A DNA stretch of 64,000 bases from Escherichia phage EcS1: the sequence record NC_055721.1, one strand, 5' to 3'. Of the stretch, positions 12,998 to 57,700 are shown piece after piece. The stretch's first letter is position 1; each line of letters opens with the position of its first letter. A program made the translations under genes and the position numbers. The notes below the pieces were generated by a model. That model was given only the letters and a program-made list of their open reading frames with translations, had not been told where the DNA came from and searched no databases.

Positions 12998-13276
12998 TCA
13001 TTTCAAATATTCTCTGAGTTCGGTGAATCCACCAATTGCTGCACCTTTAGGGTCAAAGATTTGAGGCATTGTCAAACCTGATTGAGAAGGACGATTCAGT
13101 CGTACCAACAGTTCAGAAATGACTTCAGGGTCAAACAGAAGACCGTCAGGACCTTTTCCACTAACAACTGAGATAAACTCATATGAAATTTTCTTTGCGT
13201 CCAGCAGACGTTTAGCGTTGATACATGGGATACATTTATGAATGCTTTCGTCGTAACCAAAAATCTTGTACATCAC
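12998..13276 (-). CDS. nrdC: thioredoxin/glutaredoxin NrdC
   Basis: 92 aa; active-site CIPC and blocks matching T4 NrdC as recalled (KIFGYD, HKC, NAKRLL, GLTMPQIF). Confidence 0.85.
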   Translation of the reverse strand: MMYKIFGYDESIHKCIPCINAKRLLDAKKISYEFISVVSGKGPDGLLFDPEVISELLVRLNRPSQSGLTMPQIFDPKGAAIGGFTELREYLK

Positions 13277-13541
13277 TTTCTATTTCCTTAATCGTATCTT
13301 TAAGCCCGGCATCAAAATCAGGATGATTTGCTACATGATAAAGATGACGATCTGATTGAATACGTTGATGAACATCACTATAAATCATGCTGATAGCTTT
13401 ATCTCGACCTATAGTGCAGGTTCGTTTTAATTGAGAGTCAGTGGGCATCACACCCATCTCTTTATAATAACTTACAATGAGTTCAAGCATCATTCGCTCA
13501 GCGACGTTCAGATATTCTTTACGCTTTTTCTGTTTCGTCAT
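13236..13541 (-). CDS. hypothetical protein
   Basis: ORF-track 13236..13595, start moved to internal Met. Confidence 0.4.
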   Translation of the reverse strand: MTKQKKRKEYLNVAERMMLELIVSYYKEMGVMPTDSQLKRTCTIGRDKAISMIYSDVHQRIQSDRHLYHVANHPDFDAGLKDTIKEIESDVQDFWLRRKHS

Positions 13542-13961: not shown

Positions 13962-14467
13962 TACTTCACCTCTGGAAATACTTGAGCGATACGAACCTTG
14001 ATAGCTTCATCAAGAATAGTTGTCCACGCATTATTGATGCGATTACGAATCAGTTCATCAATTTTATTTTCGTTTTGACTGATGACATGCAGAATATGAT
14101 GCTCAAGCTTTTTATTAGCTCGTTGGGCTTGGTCAACAAGATAATCTTGAATTGCATTAGATGCAATCTTTTCAGCTTCTTCGCGAATCTTAAAATTAGC
14201 AATATCAGAAGCTTGAATACCTTTCCAACCTTGGTCAGACAGTAGTTTATTCATTTGCTTATTGACTTCATCTTTAACAGAAGGAATATCAACAGGGTGT
14301 GCCTTAATTTCTTCTTTAATTAAGGTAGACACACGGTTATTTGTGTCTTTCAAAATCAAGTCTTTAGTGATGTTCTGAATAACAGAACGACGAAGGTTAA
14401 CTTGAGCTTCAGTTCCTTCAGGGAACAATTGGCGTACTGCATGTGTATCAAGAGACATACTAATCAT
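13961..14467 (-). CDS. hypothetical protein
   Basis: ORF-track 13961..14485 uses a non-ATG start; first ATG is at 14465-14467 (MISMSLDTH...), exactly at the end of the tandem duplication. Confidence 0.45.
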   Translation of the reverse strand: MISMSLDTHAVRQLFPEGTEAQVNLRRSVIQNITKDLILKDTNNRVSTLIKEEIKAHPVDIPSVKDEVNKQMNKLLSDQGWKGIQASDIANFKIREEAEKIASNAIQDYLVDQAQRANKKLEHHILHVISQNENKIDELIRNRINNAWTTILDEAIKVRIAQVFPEVK

Positions 14468-14716
14468 TTTAATCCTCGAAATCAATTTTAATATCAGGGC
14501 GACCCATTTTACTCATAATAAGTTTAAGCAAATCACCTTCGTTAAAAGATGAACTACTACAACACGAAGCATGAGGTGTGAGATCGTCATCATTTTAATC
14601 CTCGAAATCAATTTTAATATCAGGGCGACCCATTTTACTCATAATAAGTTTAAGCAAATCACCTTCGTTAAAAGATGAACTACTACAACACGAAGCATGA
14701 GGTGTGAGATCGTCAT
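14465..14716. repeat. perfect 126-bp direct tandem duplication (2 copies)
   Basis: 14465-14590 and 14591-14716 are identical base for base; covers last 41 codons plus stop of the 85-aa gene. Confidence 0.9.
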
Positions 14717-14852
14717 ATTCTACGCCATCAATTATAATGTTGTATCCTTCGGCATCGTTACTACAGCCTAATTCGCATTCACTATAATCATAAAGTTTCT
14801 GTACTTTAATATTCATCATTGTCCTCAAAAGCAGAAGGTTTAGCAATACCAA
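14595..14852 (-). CDS. hypothetical Cys-rich small protein
   Basis: 85 aa; 3' end lies in the duplicated block. Confidence 0.4.
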   Translation of the reverse strand: MVLLNLLLLRTMMNIKVQKLYDYSECELGCSNDAEGYNIIIDGVEYDDLTPHASCCSSSSFNEGDLLKLIMSKMGRPDIKIDFED

Positions 14853-15219
14853 TCAGACACACTATACCGCCTACAATAGATATAGACCATAATATAACAC
14901 CACCAAAGAACCAGATAAGATTCTCCATAGGAGTTTGCTTAATGTCCATAGGGCGTAAATCAAATACGACCTTTTCACCAACCTTCAATTGAGAATAAGT
15001 AGAAGGTTTTAGGCGCAAATCGAAATAAACATTATCTTCTGTTTTAAAAACACCAATAAATTCCGTACTCGCATATCGCCCTGTTCCTTGTCCTGAATAG
15101 AGTTGAGTTGTTTCTACAGTATATGACTTCTCGGACATGTAATCATTGTTATGACTAAATGTAAACATTACGCTGATAATGATACATAAAGCAATTAAGA
15201 ACTTAGAGCGAGTTGTCAT
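14806..15219 (-). CDS. membrane protein
   Basis: 137 aa; N- and C-terminal hydrophobic helices. Confidence 0.45.
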   Translation of the reverse strand: MTTRSKFLIALCIIISVMFTFSHNNDYMSEKSYTVETTQLYSGQGTGRYASTEFIGVFKTEDNVYFDLRLKPSTYSQLKVGEKVVFDLRPMDIKQTPMENLIWFFGGVILWSISIVGGIVCLIGIAKPSAFEDNDEY

Positions 15220-20013: not shown

Positions 20014-20991
20014 TCATTTCAACATTGTTACTTCAGCGATTTCCATCCAGTTATCATGGTCAGTAGCTACGAAGTCTGCTACATAAAGAGCCGTACGGAG
20101 TGAGACGTTACGAAGACGATTAACGTTAGACTTCATCCATTGTAAAGCTTCGATTGTTTCACTGTTTGATAAGCCACGTTTCTGCAACATATCTGTGTTC
20201 ATGATTACATCTTCAACGCGAACCATGATTTCTTCGTTTGAATGAACACCAAGGTCCAAATAAACAGAACGTGAAACCAGAGCTGCAAGATGTGGAGCAA
20301 GTTTAGAACCACGTTCTAATTCTTTGTCAACATCAACGTTAGTGATGAACACAACAGTTCCAGCAAATTCGAATTCTTTATCGATGTCTTTGTCATCAAG
20401 ATAAGACGAAGCAGTGCTCCAACAAACTTTACGAGTCTCACCAGTGTCTAAAGCAGCTTTCAGAAGGTTCAGGATATCCATGTCAGAGAAGATATCAACA
20501 TCATCAATCAGAAGCACATTACCTTCTTCTTTATTGTTCCAGAGTTGTTCGTAGAGACCGATACCTGAAATTTTGCCATTAATGCTTTTGAAAACAATAT
20601 CACCTTTTGCATCAGCACGTTTTAGAGCTTTCTCAAGGCTGTATGTCTTACCAATACCTGCAGCACCAGAGATGATTAAAGAACGAATGTTACCATTTAT
20701 GATACCAGTTGTCATCATGTTCATTACGTTAAAGCGCTTAGTGATACGAGCTTTCATTTCTTCAACTGATTCAACTTCCAGTGGAGAAGTTTCAACACCT
20801 TCCATTTCGATATCAGTTTTGAACACCCATACACCACGTTCTTTGCCATCGATTTGAACGAATACTTTGCCATCTCCCAAGTGTGCTTCATGAGCTGGAA
20901 CCATGTCCGGGAACCAAGTACGAGAAGCAATGTATTTACCAGAGATTTCGTTACCGCGGTAAGTACCTTTATTGATTTGAACGTTGAACAT
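20014..20991 (-). CDS. P-loop ATPase (AAA-like) with N-terminal extra domain
   Basis: Walker A GAAGIGKT, Walker B LLIDDVD, sensor-like TVVFITN; start set to ATG at 20989-20991, downstream of repeated promoter-like element. Confidence 0.6.
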   Translation of the reverse strand: MFNVQINKGTYRGNEISGKYIASRTWFPDMVPAHEAHLGDGKVFVQIDGKERGVWVFKTDIEMEGVETSPLEVESVEEMKARITKRFNVMNMMTTGIINGNIRSLIISGAAGIGKTYSLEKALKRADAKGDIVFKSINGKISGIGLYEQLWNNKEEGNVLLIDDVDIFSDMDILNLLKAALDTGETRKVCWSTASSYLDDKDIDKEFEFAGTVVFITNVDVDKELERGSKLAPHLAALVSRSVYLDLGVHSNEEIMVRVEDVIMNTDMLQKRGLSNSETIEALQWMKSNVNRLRNVSLRTALYVADFVATDHDNWMEIAEVTMLK

Positions 20992-21018
20992 TTTATTTCT
21001 CCAAGTAAGTCTGTTTTG

Positions 21019-21060
21019 TTTCGATGTAGCTATAATAACATGTTTGAAGCAGATGTACAC
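21019..21060 (-). promoter_or_regulatory. early-type sigma70 promoter-like element (repeat copy 1)
   Basis: minus strand: GTGTAC - 17 nt - TGtTATTATAGCT then conserved leader CATCGAAACAA; shared with three other copies. Confidence 0.5.
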
Positions 21061-21062
21061 AC

Positions 21063-21503
21063 TTATTTGCAAAGATTCCACTGAATCAAAGTATATTTTT
21101 CGTTGTAACCAGCTTTTTCCATTTGAGCAGCAAATTCTTCAAAGTTTTTAGAAGATTCAAAGAAATTCACAGCCAATTTAGTAGGCTTAGCAACACGTTT
21201 TTCAGATTTAACTTCAACTGCTTTAACAACTTCAACCACTGGAGCTGATTCAATGATATCACATGAACCATCTGAATAACGAGCCCATACTTCGTTACCA
21301 ACTTTAAACATTGCTGCTTTACGACCGTTAGGCATTTCTACCATTTTACCTTTCAACTTAGTTACTTCAGTAATAACTTTGTCACCATACTCTTCAAAAC
21401 GATCTTTAGCCATTACGCCATCAGTAGAAGCAATCATTGGGAAGTTGAAATGGTAATAAGCAAAATTACGAATTGCATAATAAGTTTTCATTTTTAACTC
21501 CAT
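21063..21503 (-). CDS. hypothetical protein
   Basis: 146-aa ORF directly downstream of promoter copy 2. Confidence 0.5.
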   Translation of the reverse strand: MELKMKTYYAIRNFAYYHFNFPMIASTDGVMAKDRFEEYGDKVITEVTKLKGKMVEMPNGRKAAMFKVGNEVWARYSDGSCDIIESAPVVEVVKAVEVKSEKRVAKPTKLAVNFFESSKNFEEFAAQMEKAGYNEKYTLIQWNLCK

Positions 21504-21516
21504 TTACTTGTTTTGT

Positions 21517-21560
21517 TTCGATGCAGCTATAATAACATGTTTGAAGCAGATGTGTACTTT
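21517..21560 (-). promoter_or_regulatory. early-type promoter-like element (repeat copy 2)
   Basis: same conserved core as copy 1. Confidence 0.5.
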
Positions 21561-21590
21561 TATTTTTGCAAATCTAAAAATAAATGCCCG

Positions 21591-38874: not shown

Positions 38875-39075
38875 TTAGATTGTAGAACCAATCACAACTT
38901 TAGCGAAAGACCAATTTTTGTTAACATGCTTAACAATATCAGCCATTTTAACAGCTTCAAACAAATCAGTAACATGATACTCATGAGTTTCGGTATTCAG
39001 TATTGCACGGAAGTTTTCAAAACAGCCAAAGTCATCAGTGATTTCATCGATTGTTACTGTATTGAAAGTAGTCAT
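38875..39075 (-). CDS. hypothetical protein
   Basis: trimmed ORF downstream of promoter copy 3. Confidence 0.35.
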   Translation of the reverse strand: MTTFNTVTIDEITDDFGCFENFRAILNTETHEYHVTDLFEAVKMADIVKHVNKNWSFAKVVIGSTI

Positions 39076-39100
39076 TTTATTTCTCCAGGTTTCCATCATT

Positions 39101-39146
39101 TGTTTCGATGGAGCTATAATAACATGCCCTCAGGAGAAGTAAACAG
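39101..39146 (-). promoter_or_regulatory. early-type sigma70 promoter-like element (repeat copy 3)
   Basis: minus strand GTTTAC - 17 nt - TGtTATTATAGCT then CATCGAAACAA leader. Confidence 0.55.
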
Positions 39147-39162
39147 CTTTGTTTAAAGACCC

Positions 39163-40119: not shown

Positions 40120-40195
40120 TGGTGCTGAATGCAGGAATCGAACCCGCGACCTTCTCATTACAAGTGAGCTGCTCTACCTACTGAGCTAATTCAGC
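40120..40195 (-). tRNA. tRNA-Thr (anticodon UGU)
   Basis: 76 nt; perfect 7-bp acceptor stem, canonical D and T arms (TTCGATT), anticodon loop CTTGTAA, encoded CCA. Confidence 0.8.
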
Positions 40196-40199
40196 AATT

Positions 40200-40284
40200 T
40201 GGTGCATCGAGAGGGATTCGAACCCTCAATCCTCGCGGCGTGGCATTTTAAGTGCCATGTGTATACCAGTTCCACCATCGATGC
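40200..40284 (-). tRNA. tRNA-Leu (anticodon UAA)
   Basis: 85 nt class-II tRNA; anticodon arm TGGCA-CTTAAAA-TGCCA, T loop TTCGAAT, CCA encoded. Confidence 0.8.
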
Positions 40285-40288
40285 GAAT

Positions 40289-40364
40289 TGGTCGAGACAG
40301 TAGGGATCGAACCTACGACCTAGGACTTAGAAGGTCCTTGCTCTTCCGTCTGAGCTATGCCCCG
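40289..40364 (-). tRNA. tRNA-Arg (anticodon UCU)
   Basis: 76 nt; anticodon arm AGGAC-CTTCTAA-GTCCT, T loop TTCGATC, CCA encoded. Confidence 0.75.
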
Positions 40365-40537
40365 TCTTTGTATAAACGTTCTAAGTAAACATGCTCCATC
40401 GGTTTAACGATTTCGCCTTGTTTCAATAATTGTGTTTGAATAGGATTCAAATTATAAAATTTGATCACATCTCTGAGATCTTGTTCGCTATAATTAAAAG
40501 TTCCTACTTCTACTCCGATTTGCATAAGTATCCTTTT

Positions 40538-40624
40538 TGGAGCTAGGAGTGAGATTCGAACTCACGAAAGCATAACGCTACTGGATTTGCAATCCAGCGC
40601 CTTTGACCACTCGGCAATCCTAGC
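40538..40624 (-). tRNA. class-II tRNA with anticodon GCA (Ser/Tyr-type architecture, Cys anticodon)
   Basis: 87 nt; perfect acceptor stem GCTAGGA/TCCTAGC, D arm GCC-GAGTGGTCAAA-GGC, anticodon arm CTGGA-TTGCAAA-TCCAG, long variable arm, T loop TTCGAAT, CCA. Confidence 0.65.
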
Positions 40625-40755
40625 AAATGTTCAGGTGGGAGTCGAACCCACACGATTGAAGCCTCTCATCGGGTTACCTCTTACTCAGCTGGGTGCTTAA
40701 ACCAGCGTTTCAAACAGAGTCCGCCAACATGTCTACCGATTCCATCACTGAACAA
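40625..40755 (-). ncRNA. tRNA-like structured RNA, about 130 nt (possible stable-RNA analogue)
   Basis: canonical T arm GTGGG-TTCGACT-CCCAC and 7-bp acceptor pairing, but the ends are about 130 nt apart and no standard anticodon arm was found. Confidence 0.3.
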
Positions 40756-40758
40756 TTT

Positions 40759-40983
40759 TTACATATCTACTTGACAAAACCAGTTCATTTCAAAATATTC
40801 ATCAAAATGTAATGCAGGTTCTACTTGACAATTTTCTTCTAATAAGACCAAATTTCTTCTAACAATAGGGTCTAATGACGTGATGGTCAAAGCACTATCA
40901 TGATAGTAAATCAGAACACGAAGCGAATCTGTATCAACTAAATACCGAACATTCATATCAGGATGTTTGTAGAGGTTAATCAT
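40759..40983 (-). CDS. hypothetical protein
   Basis: 74-aa ORF. Confidence 0.35.
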   Translation of the reverse strand: MINLYKHPDMNVRYLVDTDSLRVLIYYHDSALTITSLDPIVRRNLVLLEENCQVEPALHFDEYFEMNWFCQVDM

Positions 40984-40989
40984 AACATT

Positions 40990-41436
40990 TTATCCTTGAA
41001 GCATTTCACGAACACGATAAAGATTAGAACAGAATTCTTGTTCAGTTAGAACAGTTTCATTCTTTTTATTCTTACCCATGCTATGAGTTAATGTTGAGTT
41101 ACGCGTAGCTAGGAGTGCTCTCTTGAATCCTTCATTCAAAGCCAGAGAATCATATGCTCGCTGAATTAAAGACGTATAGGCTATACTTTGACGTAAAATA
41201 GGGACACCTTTCCAGTACAACGTTTGGGTGCGCCACCAGTTCTTTTTCTTACCTTTGAACTTAGCTTTCTTACCAACTAATGTACAGACATGCTCTTGCA
41301 TTTCTACTGAAGAAAACTTCAATGATTGCAAGAAACCTTCCATTGATGCACACTGTACTCCATCAATTTCGAAAGCATGAGGAGCAAAGTTACTTAATGC
41401 ACAACTTGGGTACATTGAACCTGAACCAATATCCAT
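40990..41436 (-). CDS. NADAR (YbiA-like) domain protein
   Basis: 148 aa; SNFAPHAFEIDG...SMEGFLQSLKF, KRALLATRN, NLYRVREML align with remembered YbiA/NADAR blocks. Confidence 0.7.
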   Translation of the reverse strand: MDIGSGSMYPSCALSNFAPHAFEIDGVQCASMEGFLQSLKFSSVEMQEHVCTLVGKKAKFKGKKKNWWRTQTLYWKGVPILRQSIAYTSLIQRAYDSLALNEGFKRALLATRNSTLTHSMGKNKKNETVLTEQEFCSNLYRVREMLQG

Positions 41437-41527
41437 TATCCATTATTCCTTTGATGATAATAACAGCGTTTACATCGATACCAACCGAAATAATCTTTGT
41501 AGATTATTCTATTGCAGTTGGGACATT

Positions 41528-41782
41528 TCATGCTGGTTCTACCTCAGTCATTGTTGTCCGTTTCAGAACCACACAACCTTCTATTTCAGGGTCTTTCTTA
41601 ACCAGAACTCGTCCAGTAGGCGAAATAAGGCCAGTAATATGATTCAGAGCTTTAGCAGCATCATTGAAGCCATCAGCTTGCATAATCGTTCCGAATGAGA
41701 ACCCTTGATAGTGATTACTAAACTCGTAATAAGCGTATTCTTCACGAATAGGGCAATAAATCACATAATCAACATTCAGCAT
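41528..41782 (-). CDS. hypothetical protein
   Basis: 84-aa ORF. Confidence 0.35.
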   Translation of the reverse strand: MLNVDYVIYCPIREEYAYYEFSNHYQGFSFGTIMQADGFNDAAKALNHITGLISPTGRVLVKKDPEIEGCVVLKRTTMTEVEPA

Positions 41783-42114
41783 AAGTCACCTACACATTGG
41801 AGAGCACGATGGTGTGACCATATTTCTAAAGTCTTTTCGTTGGCTTTATTAATTCGACGAAGGTCATTTAAATTACCTTTAACATATAACCCAAGTTCAC
41901 TTAACAAATGATCGATAGTGAAATAAGAAATATCTCGCAGTGGAGCATAACGGAACTTAATGAAGTGCCATTCATCAAACTCGTTTTTGGTAAACGCATA
42001 ATCAGCATGCATCATGAGTTCGCGAATCGTTTCACGCATCAAAAAGACATTACCGTGATAAGAATCATTTATAGCAACAATATGTGGACCTACACCTAGA
42101 TAGATACGAGACAT
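41776..42114 (-). CDS. hypothetical protein
   Basis: 112-aa ORF. Confidence 0.45.
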   Translation of the reverse strand: MSRIYLGVGPHIVAINDSYHGNVFLMRETIRELMMHADYAFTKNEFDEWHFIKFRYAPLRDISYFTIDHLLSELGLYVKGNLNDLRRINKANEKTLEIWSHHRALQCVGDLC

Positions 42115-42324
42115 AATATTTTCCTCAGTCAGTTTATTCTACATCATATTCAACTACAAGCACTTCTTCATAATCTTCAGGATTAAGAGTTTTAATGTAG
42201 TCTTCTGCTTTTTCTTTACTCGATAGAATCTTTAATGGCTTTGAATATTCATCATATCCATATTCACAGTTAAACTCTGACATAACAACTGCGTATACTA
42301 TCATAATATTTTCCTCATTTGAAT

Positions 42325-42401
42325 TGGTGGCCCTTGTCGGAGTCTAACCGACCTTACACCAGTTATGAGCTGGGCACTTTCACACGAAAGTATAAAGGGC
42401 C
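42325..42401 (-). tRNA. tRNA-like element with CAU anticodon (Met or Ile2), atypical T loop
   Basis: 77 nt; perfect acceptor GGCCCTT/AAGGGCC, anticodon loop CTCATAA, T arm GTCGG-TTAGACT-CCGAC, CCA encoded; 5' end overlaps a terminator hairpin. Confidence 0.5.
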
Positions 42402-42434
42402 ATTATTAAAATATTTTTACTTTAATAATGGCCC
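42397..42434 (-). terminator. rho-independent terminator (14-bp perfect inverted repeat)
   Basis: GGGCCATTATTAAA ... TTTAATAATGGCCC with 10-nt loop; on minus strand followed by TTTATAC; downstream of 42459..42743. Confidence 0.55.
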
Positions 42435-42458
42435 TCTCCGAAGAGAGGACAGAGGGTA

Positions 42459-42743
42459 TTACTTACACATGAACTTAGCAACTTCATCGAAGCTGTTCAA
42501 GATGTAATAAGACTTAGGCGCACTGTATTCAGTAGGTTTAATAGTAATACGTACACGACCATGCAAGTCTTCAACTAATCCAACAACAGCACTTGAACGA
42601 ACAACAGCACGAGCAGTTGTAGGAATCTGACCGGTAGTCAGAGCTTGAAGTTCGGTGTCAATAAGGATTACAATACGTTCAGACATTTTAATTTCCATTT
42701 GTTGTTTCGATGTAGTAATAATAACATGATTATTTTGAAGCAT
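42459..42743 (-). CDS. hypothetical protein
   Basis: 94-aa ORF downstream of promoter copy 4. Confidence 0.4.
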   Translation of the reverse strand: MLQNNHVIITTSKQQMEIKMSERIVILIDTELQALTTGQIPTTARAVVRSSAVVGLVEDLHGRVRITIKPTEYSAPKSYYILNSFDEVAKFMCK

Positions 42744-42750
42744 AACCGTT
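42703..42750 (-). promoter_or_regulatory. early-type promoter-like element (repeat copy 4)
   Basis: minus strand ATGCTTCA...TGtTATTATTACT...CATCGAAACAA. Confidence 0.45.
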
Positions 42751-42801
42751 CAGAGACTAAAAAGCCCAGTACAAGATTTCTCTTGCCCGGGCGTCATTAT
42801 T

Positions 42802-42876
42802 TGGAGCAGCATATCGGACTCGAACCGATGTCGACTGGGTGGAAGCCAGTAATATTAACCACTATACGAATGCTGC
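42802..42876 (-). tRNA. tRNA-Gly (anticodon UCC)
   Basis: 75 nt; anticodon arm ACTGG-CTTCCAC-CCAGT, T arm ATCGG-TTCGAGT-CCGAT, CCA. Confidence 0.75.
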
Positions 42877-42877
42877 A

Positions 42878-42951
42878 TGGCAGGCCCTGTAGGAATCGAA
42901 CCCACGTCGCTGAGGTTGGAGCTCAGAATGATACCACTATACCAAGGACCC
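42878..42951 (-). tRNA. tRNA-Trp (anticodon CCA)
   Basis: 74 nt; anticodon arm CTGAG-CTCCAAC-CTCAG, T loop TTCGATT; D stem weak. Confidence 0.6.
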
Positions 42952-43262
42952 GTTGATTGTACGGAACGCCTGGATTCGAACCAGGTTACAAAGCAGTTGA
43001 CGCTCCTTTGTATTTTGTAAGGCCATCATCTCGACCATATCCGAACGTTTCGTCAAAAACGCTACTCGGCTTATGGCAAAGACAAATCCTCGAACCGATA
43101 ATTGGTGGGAGCTGTTGGTAACGATCCAACCTCTCGAGCTCTTCAGGCAAGCGCTAATCCGTCTCAGCTAAACTCCCAGATCCACAAGAACTTTACAAGC
43201 ATTGCGCTTAACCTTTTCAGGAAGTTAGGGTACTATTTCTAGTCTGTGGTTATCCCTATTTT
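42952..43262 (-). ncRNA. structured non-coding region inside tRNA cluster (tRNA-like fragments)
   Basis: contains a canonical T arm CCTGG-TTCGAAT-CCAGG at about 42967-42985 and several hairpins but no complete cloverleaf was found by eye. Confidence 0.25.
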
Positions 43263-43338
43263 TGGTGGGAATAGCTGGATTTGAACCAGCGACCTATCGC
43301 TTATCGGGCGAGTGCTCTACCAACTGAGCTATATTCCC
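43263..43338 (-). tRNA. tRNA-Ile (anticodon GAU)
   Basis: 76 nt; GGGAATA acceptor, GCTCAGTTGGTAGAGC D arm, anticodon loop CCGATAA, T loop TTCAAAT, CCA. Confidence 0.8.
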
Positions 43339-43344
43339 ATAATT

Positions 43345-43421
43345 TGGTCTCCATATAAGGATTTGAACCTTAGACCTCCTGGCCCCAAACCAGGCGCTCT
43401 ACCAAACTGAGCTACACGGAG
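43345..43421 (-). tRNA. tRNA-Pro (anticodon UGG)
   Basis: 77 nt; anticodon arm CCTGG-TTTGGGG-CCAGG, T loop TTCAAAT, CCA. Confidence 0.75.
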
Positions 43422-43422
43422 A

Positions 43423-43668
43423 TTAATTTATATCAAATATGGTGCCATCTTTCCACATCATTGCGAAAAGAGGTGAAACTTTTGTTAAACGGTGTGCAAC
43501 TTTAACTTGACGGCTAAAACCTTCAATTTGAGCACCATAACCATTTATATCTAATACAAGACCAATATGAACTTTGCCAATATCAGACATACCATTTGAA
43601 GGTAATCCAATCATGACATAATCGTTAACTTCGATTTGTTTACCATATTTGTCAAATAATATCTTCAT
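43423..43668 (-). CDS. hypothetical protein embedded in tRNA cluster
   Basis: 81-aa ORF between tRNA-Pro and tRNA-Ser. Confidence 0.35.
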   Translation of the reverse strand: MKILFDKYGKQIEVNDYVMIGLPSNGMSDIGKVHIGLVLDINGYGAQIEGFSRQVKVAHRLTKVSPLFAMMWKDGTIFDIN

Positions 43669-43693
43669 AATTATTTATTCACCATATTTTAAT

Positions 43694-43787
43694 TGGAGGA
43701 AGCTGTGAGATTTGAACTCACGGAACCTGTCCCCAGGACCTCTAGTTTTCAAGACTAGTGCAATAAACCAGACTCTGCCAAGCTTCC
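43694..43787 (-). tRNA. tRNA-Ser (anticodon UGA)
   Basis: 94 nt class-II; anticodon arm CTAGT-CTTGAAA-ACTAG, long variable arm, T loop TTCAAAT, CCA. Confidence 0.75.
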
Positions 43788-43791
43788 GAAT

Positions 43792-43867
43792 TGGGGTGAC
43801 CTGTGGAATTCGAATCCACGACTACGAGAATCACAATCTCGAGTTCTACCAACTGAACTAAGGCCAC
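43792..43867 (-). tRNA. tRNA-His (anticodon GUG)
   Basis: 76 nt; anticodon arm CGAGA-TTGTGAT-TCTCG, T loop TTCGAAT, discriminator C, CCA. Confidence 0.7.
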
Positions 43868-43967
43868 ATCAATATTCACTCAGCCACTTCGTGCGGACCT
43901 GTCTCGATATTACGTGTAGTGGATTAGCTAGTTCACACCACTATATCGTCTAGAATGAATATTAATT

Positions 43968-44043
43968 TGGCTAGAGCGCTTGGATTCGAACCAAGGAATA
44001 CCAGAATCAAAATCTGGTGTCGTAACCGCTTGACTACGCTCTA
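43968..44043 (-). tRNA. tRNA-Gln (anticodon UUG)
   Basis: 76 nt; anticodon arm CCAGA-TTTTGAT-TCTGG, T loop TTCGAAT, CCA. Confidence 0.75.
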
Positions 44044-44045
44044 AT

Positions 44046-44121
44046 TGGAGGCGAGTGATGGAATCGAACCATCGCGTAAAGGGATATGAACCCTTTATTC
44101 TACCACTGAAGTTAACTCGCT
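44046..44121 (-). tRNA. tRNA-Met (anticodon CAU), initiator-like
   Basis: 76 nt; anticodon stem ends in three consecutive G-C pairs (AAGGG/CCCTT), loop TTCATAT, position 1-72 unpaired (A-C), CCA. Confidence 0.65.
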
Positions 44122-44248
44122 ATTGTCCGGGTTCTCGAAGTAAAAACAAGTAGCTTGATGTAGAACACATAAAGTGGGAACAACTCACTTCATCTCCTAG
44201 CATTATTGTATGGAGACTCAAACTCATCTTCAAGAACTGCTTCGTATT

Positions 44249-44325
44249 TGGCGGACGTGCTTGGACTCGAACCAAGGACCTATCGCTTAACAGGCGACCG
44301 CTCTAACCAACTGAGCTACACATCC
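44249..44325 (-). tRNA. tRNA-Asn (anticodon GUU)
   Basis: 77 nt; anticodon loop CTGTTAA, T loop TTCGAGT, CCA. Confidence 0.75.
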
Positions 44326-44329
44326 AAAA

Positions 44330-44461
44330 TTTACTTTCAGGGTTACTCGAAGCTCTCAAACCTTCCGGAAAGTCGAATAAGCATCTCATCCTCTCAGAAT
44401 CCCGTGCACAGGAAAAATCTTTATTAGGAGGAGACTAAATCAATATAACCCTGAAAGTAAA
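44330..44461. repeat. 16-bp perfect inverted repeat flanking a 100-nt spacer
   Basis: TTTACTTTCAGGGTTA at 44330-44345 and TAACCCTGAAAGTAAA at 44446-44461. Confidence 0.8.
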
Positions 44462-44475
44462 CTTACTTTCGAATT

Positions 44476-44552
44476 TGGTGGGACATCATGGACTCGAACC
44501 ATGGACACCCGGATTAAAAGTCCGGTGCTCTAACCAACTGAGCTAATATCCC
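44476..44552 (-). tRNA. tRNA-Lys (anticodon UUU)
   Basis: 77 nt; anticodon arm CCGGA-CTTTTAA-TCCGG, T loop TTCGAGT, CCA. Confidence 0.8.
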
Positions 44553-45015
44553 ATAGATATTTATCTATAAATCTCTTAGCTTGAGTATGACTTATATTTA
44601 AACTTTTACTAAACTTGGTTAATGCACCTCGTTTAGTAAAATCTATTAAATTATAAGCTTCAATTCTAGAAGCAATTTCTTCTTCAGACAAAACCAAAGC
44701 ATGGTTTTCTGAAATCTTTTTACGAGATTCTGTTGTATGTGACATACCAGTAAAACCAAGAGTAGGTTTTAGTCTACCATTAGCTTTAGCGTCTTGTGCA
44801 TTTTGTTTATTTGTCGCACAATAAATGTTTTCTAATGAATAAGGACCTATATCGCCTTTACGACACATGCAATAATCCAAACTTGCTTTACCACGTAAAT
44901 GATATTTACCTGTTGATTTCCACCAAGTAAACCACTCATCAAAAGTTAGATTAAATTCAATACCACGAGCTTTGGCATGAACTTTTTGCATACGGTACTT
45001 TTCATAATCTTCCAT
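44530..45015 (-). CDS. homing-endonuclease-like protein (NUMOD3-like motif, C-terminal DNA-binding region)
   Basis: start set to ATG at 45013-45015 (MEDYEKY...); GFTGMSHTTESRKKISENH resembles NUMOD3; 3' end reads through the 5' part of tRNA-Lys. Confidence 0.4.
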   Translation of the reverse strand: MEDYEKYRMQKVHAKARGIEFNLTFDEWFTWWKSTGKYHLRGKASLDYCMCRKGDIGPYSLENIYCATNKQNAQDAKANGRLKPTLGFTGMSHTTESRKKISENHALVLSEEEIASRIEAYNLIDFTKRGALTKFSKSLNISHTQAKRFIDKYLWDISSVG

Positions 45016-45030
45016 ACAACTCTCACAAAT

Positions 45031-45106
45031 TGGCAGTGCCGACGGGATTCGAACCCGCATGGTCTCCCGTGACAGGGGAGTATATTACCAAGTCTACCAC
45101 GGCACT
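45031..45106 (-). tRNA. tRNA-Asp (anticodon GUC)
   Basis: 76 nt; anticodon arm CTCCC-CTGTCAC-GGGAG, T loop TTCGAAT, CCA. Confidence 0.75.
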
Positions 45107-45112
45107 ATTGTT

Positions 45113-45187
45113 TGGTACTCTGTAGGAGAATTGAACTCCTCTTCCCAGGTTGAAAACCTGGTGTCCTAACCGATAGACGAACAGAGC
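45113..45187 (-). tRNA. tRNA-Glu (anticodon UUC)
   Basis: 75 nt; D arm TCGTCTATCGGTTAGGACACC, anticodon arm CCAGG-TTTTCAA-CCTGG, CCA. Confidence 0.75.
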
Positions 45188-45195
45188 TAAGAATT

Positions 45196-45284
45196 TGGTG
45201 CACCGAGAAGGACTCGAACCTACGAAGCTCATTACAAGCAGGAGATTTACAGTCTCCACCCTTTGCCACTCGGGTCATCGATGC
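45196..45284 (-). tRNA. tRNA-Tyr (anticodon GUA)
   Basis: about 89 nt class-II; anticodon arm GGAGA-CTGTAAA-TCTCC, long variable arm, T loop TTCGAGT, CCA. Confidence 0.7.
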
Positions 45285-54700: not shown

Positions 54701-57700
54701 CTGTAAAAGCACCTATCGTTACCAGTTTACGAATTGATAAACTGTCTGCGAACCAGGTTCACATTCGTTGGGATGACGTTGGTGCTAATTTCTACTATTT
54801 TGTAGAACTTACTAATACACGAGATGGTCTTGGGGTCGTAATTGACCCCTCTCGTTATCAGTGGAGAGCACTAGGTTATACCGCGGACAATGACTGGTTT
54901 GAAGAAGCATACATCTATCCACTCTCATATTATAAAATGCGCGTAGGCGTAGCTGCTGCAGGCTTCGAACAATCTGAATGGGTTACAACTGAAGAATTCC
55001 AAACATTTGAGACAAATGCGTATACATTTGAGACTATGCGTGAATTAACTTTAGTTAATAAGTTTATTCAAGAAAAATTTACAAAAAACAATCAAGATTA
55101 TATTAATTTCAACAGAGATTCTATTGAAGCTTCTTTAATGAATGAGAGCTTCCAATTTAGTCCTTCTTTTGACGACTTATCTTCAGTTAAAAACTTTATT
55201 TTAAATGAAGATCAATATCATGAGGTCCAAGGTCCAATAGTCCATGTTTGTAATCCGGACACAGACCGAGTAATGTTAGCTGAGATGGATGATGTTCTTT
55301 ATTTGTTTGAGCGCTTCCAACCTATGGTTAAAGTGTCAAATGATAAAGGACAGAACTGGCAATATATCCAATTGTTTAATGACCGTGTAGGCAATCCTGT
55401 TTCACGTATTTGTCATTATCAATCTAAATCGACTACGTATGTTCTTGGATATGACCGTATATTTTATGGACGTCGTTCTAATGATATCAGATGGTCAGCT
55501 GATGATGTTAAATTCAGTTCACAAGATATAACCTTCGCTAAAATCGGTGACCAATTAAAACTTGGATTTGATGTTGAAATCTTTGGGACTTATTCTAGAC
55601 TCCCAGGTGAAGTCTCTCGTATCGCAGAGGCAATCGTATGTAATGATGACTATGTCTATGTGGTTGCTCGTGATAAAGTCCGCTATGCTAAGCTGAAGAA
55701 TGCTCCTATAGATGTTGACCCAGCTTCTCCTACCTTTGGTGAGAAATTATTTGAAACTGAAGTTTTGAATATCACAGGCAATCCTAAAGCTGTATGCTTT
55801 AAAATGGATTCAATTGGCGGTCGTATATTTGCTTTAATCACAGGTGAAGTTAAAGTAGAAAAACAAGACCCAACGAATCCTGAAAATGTCATTGATTCAG
55901 CATCTAAAGGCGTTTATGTTCTTGAAGGTTCTACATGGCGCAGAGTATTCGGTAACACTGATGAAGAACGACGTCGGATTGAGCATCAATATACTTCAAT
56001 GTCTACTGATGGTATCGAATTATTCTTTAGCTCAAGTAACTTCAAATATCTTGAAACTGTTAAAGACACTGCACTGCTTCTTGAATACCCAGAATTATCA
56101 GATGCAATAAAATACGTCCCAGTCGAAGAGTTCTTGCATGATAAGCATTATCATATGATGAGCTTCCGTTCAGGCGAAGATTCTAATTGGGAAACATTTA
56201 AACCAGGACGTATGAAGTATTATGCTGAGCCATTCTTTGCTTGGATGAAACGTTCTGGGAATCGCAATTGGATTACAACTGATGACCACTGTATGGTTGT
56301 TTATGCAGACCGTTTGTATACAACTGTAATTGATGAATATGGTTCAGGTTCTCCAGACCGTATTATGCATGAAACTTGGAACAAAGGTGAATGTATTGTC
56401 AATTCGCCTAACATTGAGTTCAGAGGTTTTAAAAAATATGCCGGTGGTGTTTTGATTCATAAAAACACCGGTGAGCTTATTGGATATTTTGAATTTGACT
56501 ATCGAGTTCGTGATGAAGCTCGTATCATTTGGAAACCAAAAGAAGTAATGCTTAAAGCATATCTTCAGAACCAGGTTCGTGAAGTTCCTTGGACTCCAGA
56601 AGTAAACGATGCAGAACGTGATCCTGATTTACGACCACTAATTAATAAAATGATGCCTGACACTTACTTACTTCAAGATACTAATTTTGAAAAGTTTAGT
56701 GAATACTATTTGCAATATATTTCAGATGGATATGGCACTCATTATAATAAATTGTTGAATCTTATCAAAGAGAAATATCCTAGAGAAGAACATGCTTGGG
56801 AATACCTTTGGTCTGAAGTGTATAAACGCAATATCTATTTGGATAAAGAAAAACGTGATACAGTAACTCGATTCTTTGAGGCTCGTAAAGCTGACTTCTT
56901 TAAAACAAAAGGTATTGAAGAATCATATAAGTTCTTATTCAAAGTTCTTTATAATGAAGATGTTGAAATTGATATTGAATCTAAGAACACAACTGAATAT
57001 GGTGTTATTGTCGAATCTGATAATATCAGTGAAGATTTAGCAGGAAGAACAGTTTATACGCCAACAGGTCGTTGTAATGTGACTTATATCGAACGAGTTT
57101 ATTCTGAAGGTAAGCTGCAATGGCGATTAACTATTCATAACCTTTTAGGACGTTTCTTAGTTGGTCAAACTATTAAATCTGAAAAGACTAATTTCACTGG
57201 GACTATTGTTCAAGGTGTAAGAGGTAAAGAACTTCTTTCTAACAATATCGATTATATTAATCGTAATCGTTCTTATTACGTTATGAAGATTAAGTCTAAC
57301 CTGCCTACATCACGTTATCGTAATGACGTGTTAAGATTCGTTCATCCAGTTGGCTTTGGCTTTATTGGTATAACTCTTTTAACCATGTTCATTAACGTTG
57401 GTCTTACATTAAAGCATTCGGAAACAATCATCAATATGCTCAAAACATATCGTTGGGATGCTGGTTTACCTAATGTCTGGCCTGATAGAATTGCCGTCCT
57501 TGATTCAAATGGTAATATTGAATTTGACTCAGTTACAGGTGAAGCTAAATATGATAACCACCCTAATTCAGGACAACCGTTCCCATTGCCTACAGATTAT
57601 AATTCTGAAAATGACGATAGTATATTTGGTGGACAAACTCCGGATGAACGCCGTAAAGAATTAAGTCCAACTATGGACCAATCTGCAGTGACGTTCTCTA

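Follow-up and report, generated by a model that had tools for sequence, protein, structure and literature searches.

Does the reference genome of Escherichia phage EcS1 hold a real tandem duplication at the junction of two of its genes, or has one segment been entered twice during assembly, and would a second copy, if real, have any role? EcS1 is a T4-like phage (Straboviridae, Tevenvirinae) with a genome of 175,437 bp and is alone in the genus Kagamiyamavirus; the window analysed here is a stretch of 64,000 nucleotides of that genome (NC_055721.1). The Winklervirus phages are its nearest relatives, with an intergenomic similarity of about 66% (PMC10132071). The main relevance of the repeat is one of data quality, as a flag on the EcS1 reference sequence.

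The repeated unit and the two genes at its junction

Positions 14465-14590 of the window match positions 14591-14716 at 126 of 126 nucleotides, by direct string comparison, by reading of the region and by Tandem Repeats Finder (TRF), which reports a period of 126, 2.0 copies, 100% matches, no indels and a score of 508. Identity at this period extends over 254 bp, from 14463 to 14716, which leaves 2 nt ('AT') of uncertainty in where the junction falls. The tandem pair is the only long perfect repeat of the 64-kb window, in which no further copy of the unit exists; the junction motif TTCGAGGATTAAAATGAT has two sites there, both within the repeat, for a chance expectation of 0.02. Where the copies meet, a novel junction joins GGATTAAAATG to ATGACGATCTC. 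The original prediction of a perfect, in-frame tandem duplication across the end of one gene and the start of the next is thus borne out, with a correction of strand, both genes lying on the minus strand. The features of the locus are as follows.

14595..14816, minus strand: gp088, a 73-aa Cys-rich protein (MNIKVQ...DFED) of phrog_8901, intact, 100% identical to BBC78136.1 / YP_010090783.1
13961..14467, minus strand: gp087, a 168-aa protein (MISMSLDTH...) of phrog_3806, intact, an exact match to BBC78135.1
14591..14716, minus strand: copy 1, upstream in transcription, with the true 3' end of gp088 (39 codons and TAA), then A and the duplicated, decoy ATG; identical to 14465-14590
14465..14590, minus strand: copy 2, downstream, with the gp088 tail repeated but lacking a start, another TAA at 14471-14469 and the true gp087 ATG at 14467-14465; from string comparison
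14463..14464, minus strand: 2-nt 'AT' extension of the periodicity, the sole 'microhomology' of the junction; from the periodic extent 14463-14716
14513..14593, minus strand: 26-aa by-product ORF MMTISHLMLRVVVVHLLTKVICLNLL, in a different frame from gp088, which the duplicated ribosome-binding site and ATG create
14469..14594, minus strand: in-frame stretch past the gp088 stop, 41 sense codons (N-D and 39 repeated residues) and a second TAA; from reading of the sequence

Read on the minus strand, the unit begins with 2 nt from a Tyr codon and continues with the final 39 codons of gp088, its TAA, an A and the ATG of gp087, where 41 codons plus a stop had originally been counted, and it also contains the GAGGA ribosome-binding site of gp087. 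It holds no complete gene, just these 39 codons and the start codon of gp087. The gp088 gene itself runs from an ATG at 14816 to a TAA at 14597-14595 and encodes 73 aa, the earlier figure of 85 aa being obtained by counting from an upstream TTG. A start codon is present in each copy, as had been noted, at 14593-14591 and at 14467-14465.

Both genes are intact because copy 1 completes gp088 while copy 2 supplies the true start of gp087, which retains its own GAGGA ribosome-binding site at 14477-14473 and an unchanged upstream context of 126 nt. The true gp087 start now lies 126 nt past the gp088 stop, and the place beside the stop is occupied by a decoy start, that of the 26-aa ORF, with its GAGGA at 14603-14599 and its ATG at 14593-14591. 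All that the extra copy contributes is a promoter-less gp088 tail and the decoy start of this 26-codon ORF. The numbers gp087 and gp088 being consecutive, the deposited annotation has nothing between the two genes. Each of the two EcS1 proteins stands alone in its own 90% cluster. In Pfam, gp087 matches HSDR_N, a family for the N-terminal part of the R protein of type I restriction enzymes, at E = 0.002; with a score of 18.5 bits for a cutoff of 25.1, this weak match is below threshold and probably noise.

Copy number and junction in related phages

As had been proposed as a check, the copy number was compared with that of related genomes, and one copy was found in all of these relatives. Ten Winklervirus records, which include Serratia phages X20, CHI14, CBH8 and LC53, Erwinia phages Gravdalen, Vettismorki and Virsaitis27 and Kosakonia phage Kc304, align across the locus at about 77-79% identity, each with a single copy; the locus spans about 390 bp in these records versus about 514 bp in the EcS1 window. 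In a three-way alignment with X20 and Kc304, the difference appears as a clean gap of 126 columns. A single junction of the form stop-A(A)-ATG is kept in the relatives, reading GAGGATTAAAAATG in X20 and Kc304 versus GAGGATTAAAATG in EcS1, and the annotated X20 and Kc304 genes, of 74 aa and 171 aa, lie 2 nt apart.

More distant phages give the same picture. In tblastn searches, the small protein matches at a single place in 34 of 34 matching phage records, Yersinia and Salmonella T4-like groups included, and 24 of these records are more distant than the ten Winklervirus genomes. The phrog_8901 profile has 75 positions, which is the one-copy length, and gp088 covers positions 1-74. One copy in the relatives, together with the one-copy length of the profile, indicates that the ancestral state is a single copy with a tight stop-start junction. 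This ancestral gp088/gp087 junction was probably translationally coupled; it resembles the coupled TAA-N-ATG junctions known from T4-type phages, where the upstream gene contains the ribosome-binding site. The EcS1 record differs from these in that the real gp087 start lies 126 nt past the gp088 stop.

Searches with megablast and blastn of 50,697 phage records, a collection that excludes the EcS1 record itself, returned no closer sister sequence above about 79% identity at the locus. The exact boundary and junction patterns have 0 matches in IMG/VR and in GTDB genomes, and look-ups of the exact proteins in the assembly index returned no contig. A conserved motif from within the unit was found in one CHI14-like IMG/VR contig, in single copy, while two metagenome contigs with this motif were set aside as unrelated, having merely 27 bp in common. 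The motif occurs once per match in IMG/VR and in metagenomes, where the duplication was not found in any independent sequence.

The locus belongs to the plastic nrdC region; downstream of the repeat, at about 1.2 kb, is the thioredoxin gene, and upstream lies an nrdC.2-like gene. Between gp088 and this nrdC.2-like gene, which encodes 78 aa, EcS1 has a 137-aa gene (phrog_2547; 14806-15219, minus strand), whose product looks from its sequence like a membrane protein. The gp088 and nrdC.2-like homologues are directly adjacent in Serratia X20 and Kosakonia Kc304, with no 137-aa gene between them, and this gene is thus an insertion or deletion difference within the plastic region. At 13000-13527, which holds the nrdC thioredoxin gene and the gene beside it, the sequence has 90.5% identity to Serratia X20 and 91% to Erwinia Gravdalen, versus about 76% in the flanking DNA; the same segment is 80-81% identical to Kc304 and to the CHI14-like contig. 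The segment is thus a mosaic patch, which suggests an exchange of fairly recent date.

Assembly overlap or recent duplication

The original prediction took the zero divergence of the copies to mean that the event is very recent or the assembly at fault, a reading that is upheld here. On balance, and with modest confidence, we regard the second copy as an artefact at the level of assembly, namely an untrimmed overlap. A circularly permuted genome of the T4 type would have yielded, on assembly, a contig with the same 126 bp at both ends, and closure followed by re-orientation to the T4 gene order would have left this overlap untrimmed, producing two identical adjacent copies. The phage itself would then have the ancestral layout, i.e., the gp088 TAA, one A and the gp087 ATG, translationally coupled as in the relatives, with neither an additional ORF nor a readthrough extension, and nothing biological to explain. 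While we infer this assembly history, an artefact is favoured by several properties of the repeat: its copies are 100% identical, exactly 2.0 in number and the only such repeat in 64 kb; the ten Winklervirus records, the 24 more distant ones and the 75-position phrog_8901 profile all have one copy; and the match at the junction, of 2 nt, is at the level of chance. Among 200,000 simulated 126-bp duplications in the window, 19.5% match by at least 2 nt (P = 0.195). The weights that we attach to an artefact, to a neutral duplication and to a functional one are soft, and are partly our own base-rate estimates.

Artefacts of this kind are well documented. Perfect end overlaps with the length of the largest k-mer, n or n-1, are a known by-product of assemblers (PMC7111523), SPAdes contigs of phages routinely have artificial overlaps of 127 bp (PMC5923482), and both the circular assembly of permuted genomes and redundancies that come to lie internally are described among the common artefacts (PMC8785237). 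The EcS1 repeat resembles the untrimmed overlaps (k or k-1) of de Bruijn assemblers in having exactly two perfect, adjacent copies, with a length in the range of maximal k-mers, no junction homology beyond chance and no counterpart in the relatives; its genome, in addition, belongs to a type that comes out of assembly circular and is then, as a rule, re-oriented manually. It differs from the SPAdes artefact in two ways, the period being 126 instead of 127 and the repeat being internal instead of at the ends of the record. An internal place would call for a re-orientation step, the step at which an untrimmed overlap turns internal; the gene numbers 087 and 088 and a position co-linear with that in X20 (about 45 kb) suggest that the record was indeed re-oriented to the T4 order. 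As for the period, 126 equals 127-1, and a SPAdes overlap at k = 127 is rejected as the exact explanation, since it would leave a period of 127. An artefact therefore requires an assembler of the k-1 kind or a manual join.

The read types that may have been used bear on the same question. The laboratory that presumably deposited EcS1, to judge from the genus name, relied in 2017-18 on 454/Newbler or PacBio for other phages, according to two papers that serve as a proxy. Neither approach creates k-mer overlaps and both could resolve a 252-bp repeat, which counts against an artefact if they were used for EcS1. The position of the repeat also argues against one: it spans a gene junction and both genes survive, as selection would leave a real event, and by our own estimate only about 20% of random positions would leave both genes intact.

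These same points speak for a genuine tandem duplication in the EcS1 stock, very recent and nearly neutral under selection. This is a serious alternative, although we consider it rather less than probable. It would have arisen by replication slippage or by illegitimate (homology-independent) recombination during the recombination-dependent replication of a T4-type phage. As side effects, the 126-nt spacer would break the tight stop-start coupling of gp088 and gp087, and the decoy ribosome-binding site and ATG would direct synthesis of a 26-aa out-of-frame peptide; homologous recombination between the copies would remove the repeat again. Two intact ORFs are what purifying selection tolerates, zero divergence and absence from the relatives suit a very recent event, the period is not the 127 of the commonest assembler artefact, and the read types of the presumed source laboratory could resolve the repeat. 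Moreover, tandem duplications and amplifications arise readily in T4 (PMC9391042).

Like the T4 duplications and amplifications described for rII, Hp17 and dmd-tifA (PMC9391042), the EcS1 repeat is direct, head-to-tail and located in a T4-type genome, and one would expect it to be of recent origin and open to reversal through homologous recombination. The known cases range from 0.7 kb to several kb, comprise whole genes and were selected for dosage, while the EcS1 unit, at 126 bp and without a complete gene, would bring no such dosage benefit. Its 2-nt junction match also contrasts with the microhomologies of 6-10 bp at T4 amplification junctions (PMC9391042). A shared ATGA near the junction would, as read from the sequence, yield a period of 123 and not 126. 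The step from a single-copy segment to two perfect tandem copies recalls microhomology-mediated tandem duplications (MTDs), which are described as rapidly reversible, but flanking microhomology defines that class and the junction match in EcS1 is at chance level; an origin of this kind is accordingly rejected.

A further argument against a real duplication comes from the expected stability of the repeat. A perfect direct repeat of 126 bp is not expected to be stable in so recombinogenic a phage and should be lost quickly through T4 recombination, so that an unselected real case should be rare in a stock. Nor does any independent sequence in IMG/VR, GTDB genomes or metagenomes carry the duplication. 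Both the assembly artefact and the recent neutral duplication belong to well-known classes, and the finding is in this sense an ordinary one. If the repeat is an artefact, the EcS1 reference, the exemplar genome of Kagamiyamavirus, exceeds the true length by 126 bp and a correction is due. If it is real, EcS1 provides a small example of a T4-type duplication at a gene junction that is harmless to both genes and expected to revert. In either case, the current understanding of phage biology is unchanged.

Scope for a function, and other repeats in the window

That a real duplication was kept for a function, be it readthrough of gp088, regulatory uncoupling of, or a decoy for, gp087 translation or production of a useful 26-aa hydrophobic peptide, is very improbable. 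All of these are formal possibilities: copy 2 is in frame past the TAA, the decoy ribosome-binding site and ATG are identical to a working site, and the predicted 26-aa product is hydrophobic. However, no evolved role is to be expected, since copies with zero divergence have had no time in which a function could evolve or be tested by selection.

The first functional candidate, a formal possibility, is programmed readthrough of the gp088 TAA, which would give a 115-aa protein with a repeated C-terminal module. The stretch at 14469..14594 would be translated solely under such readthrough. It does lie in frame after the TAA, as was originally described, but would not append an exact repeat of 41 residues, being made of N-D followed by 39 repeated residues. 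Readthrough as such thus stands as formally possible while lacking support: the stop context is TAA followed by A, the extension is itself closed by a second TAA, and none of the 17 tRNA genes in the window has a suppressor anticodon. Neither is the extension conserved, as no in-frame gp088 extension exists in the relatives, the next gene of X20 and Kc304 beginning 2 nt past the stop, and the phrog_8901 profile ends at the first stop. On these grounds, programmed readthrough was rejected.

The 17 tRNA genes form a cluster at 40120-45284 on the minus strand, with specificities for Thr, Leu, Arg, Cys, Gly, Trp, Ile, Pro, Ser, His, Gln, Met, Asn, Lys, Asp, Glu and Tyr. T4 has 8 tRNA genes, and the EcS1 cluster thus holds about twice that number.

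The other candidates fare no better. The ORF in the +1 frame is absent from the relatives, X20 and Kc304 having no ATG for it and X20 showing TAC at the internal ATG of EcS1, and its 26-aa product has no match in the protein collection or in Pfam. Predicted local mRNA folds are equivalent at the decoy start (-8.5 kcal/mol) and at the true gp087 start (-8.4 kcal/mol). The unit contains neither a sigma-70-like promoter on the coding strand nor a terminator; with no such signals in it, and with no further occurrence in the window, a promoter, a terminator or a mobile cassette was rejected as its content. Least probable of all, to the point of being hardly credible, is that the duplication is both real and maintained, with the decoy start and the 126-nt spacer retuning gp087 translation, or with the peptide or an extended gp088 being advantageous; if true, it would be a snapshot of the de novo birth of a regulatory element or an ORF by junction duplication in a T4-like phage.

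Repeats of other kinds occur elsewhere in the window. A dispersed repeat of about 87 nt is present at 20989-21075, 21486-21572 and 39073-39159, with 70-74% identity between copies. The third copy, on the minus strand, resembles a promoter of the T4 early type (GTTTAC, 17 nt, TATTAT), and in copies 1 and 3 a conserved leader follows, GGAGAAATAAAATG, made of a ribosome-binding site and an ATG. This dispersed repeat may be a mobile promoter cassette like those of the PeSL type. Finally, TRF reports a short tandem repeat with a 21-bp period at 55003-55041, with 1.9 copies and 89% matches.
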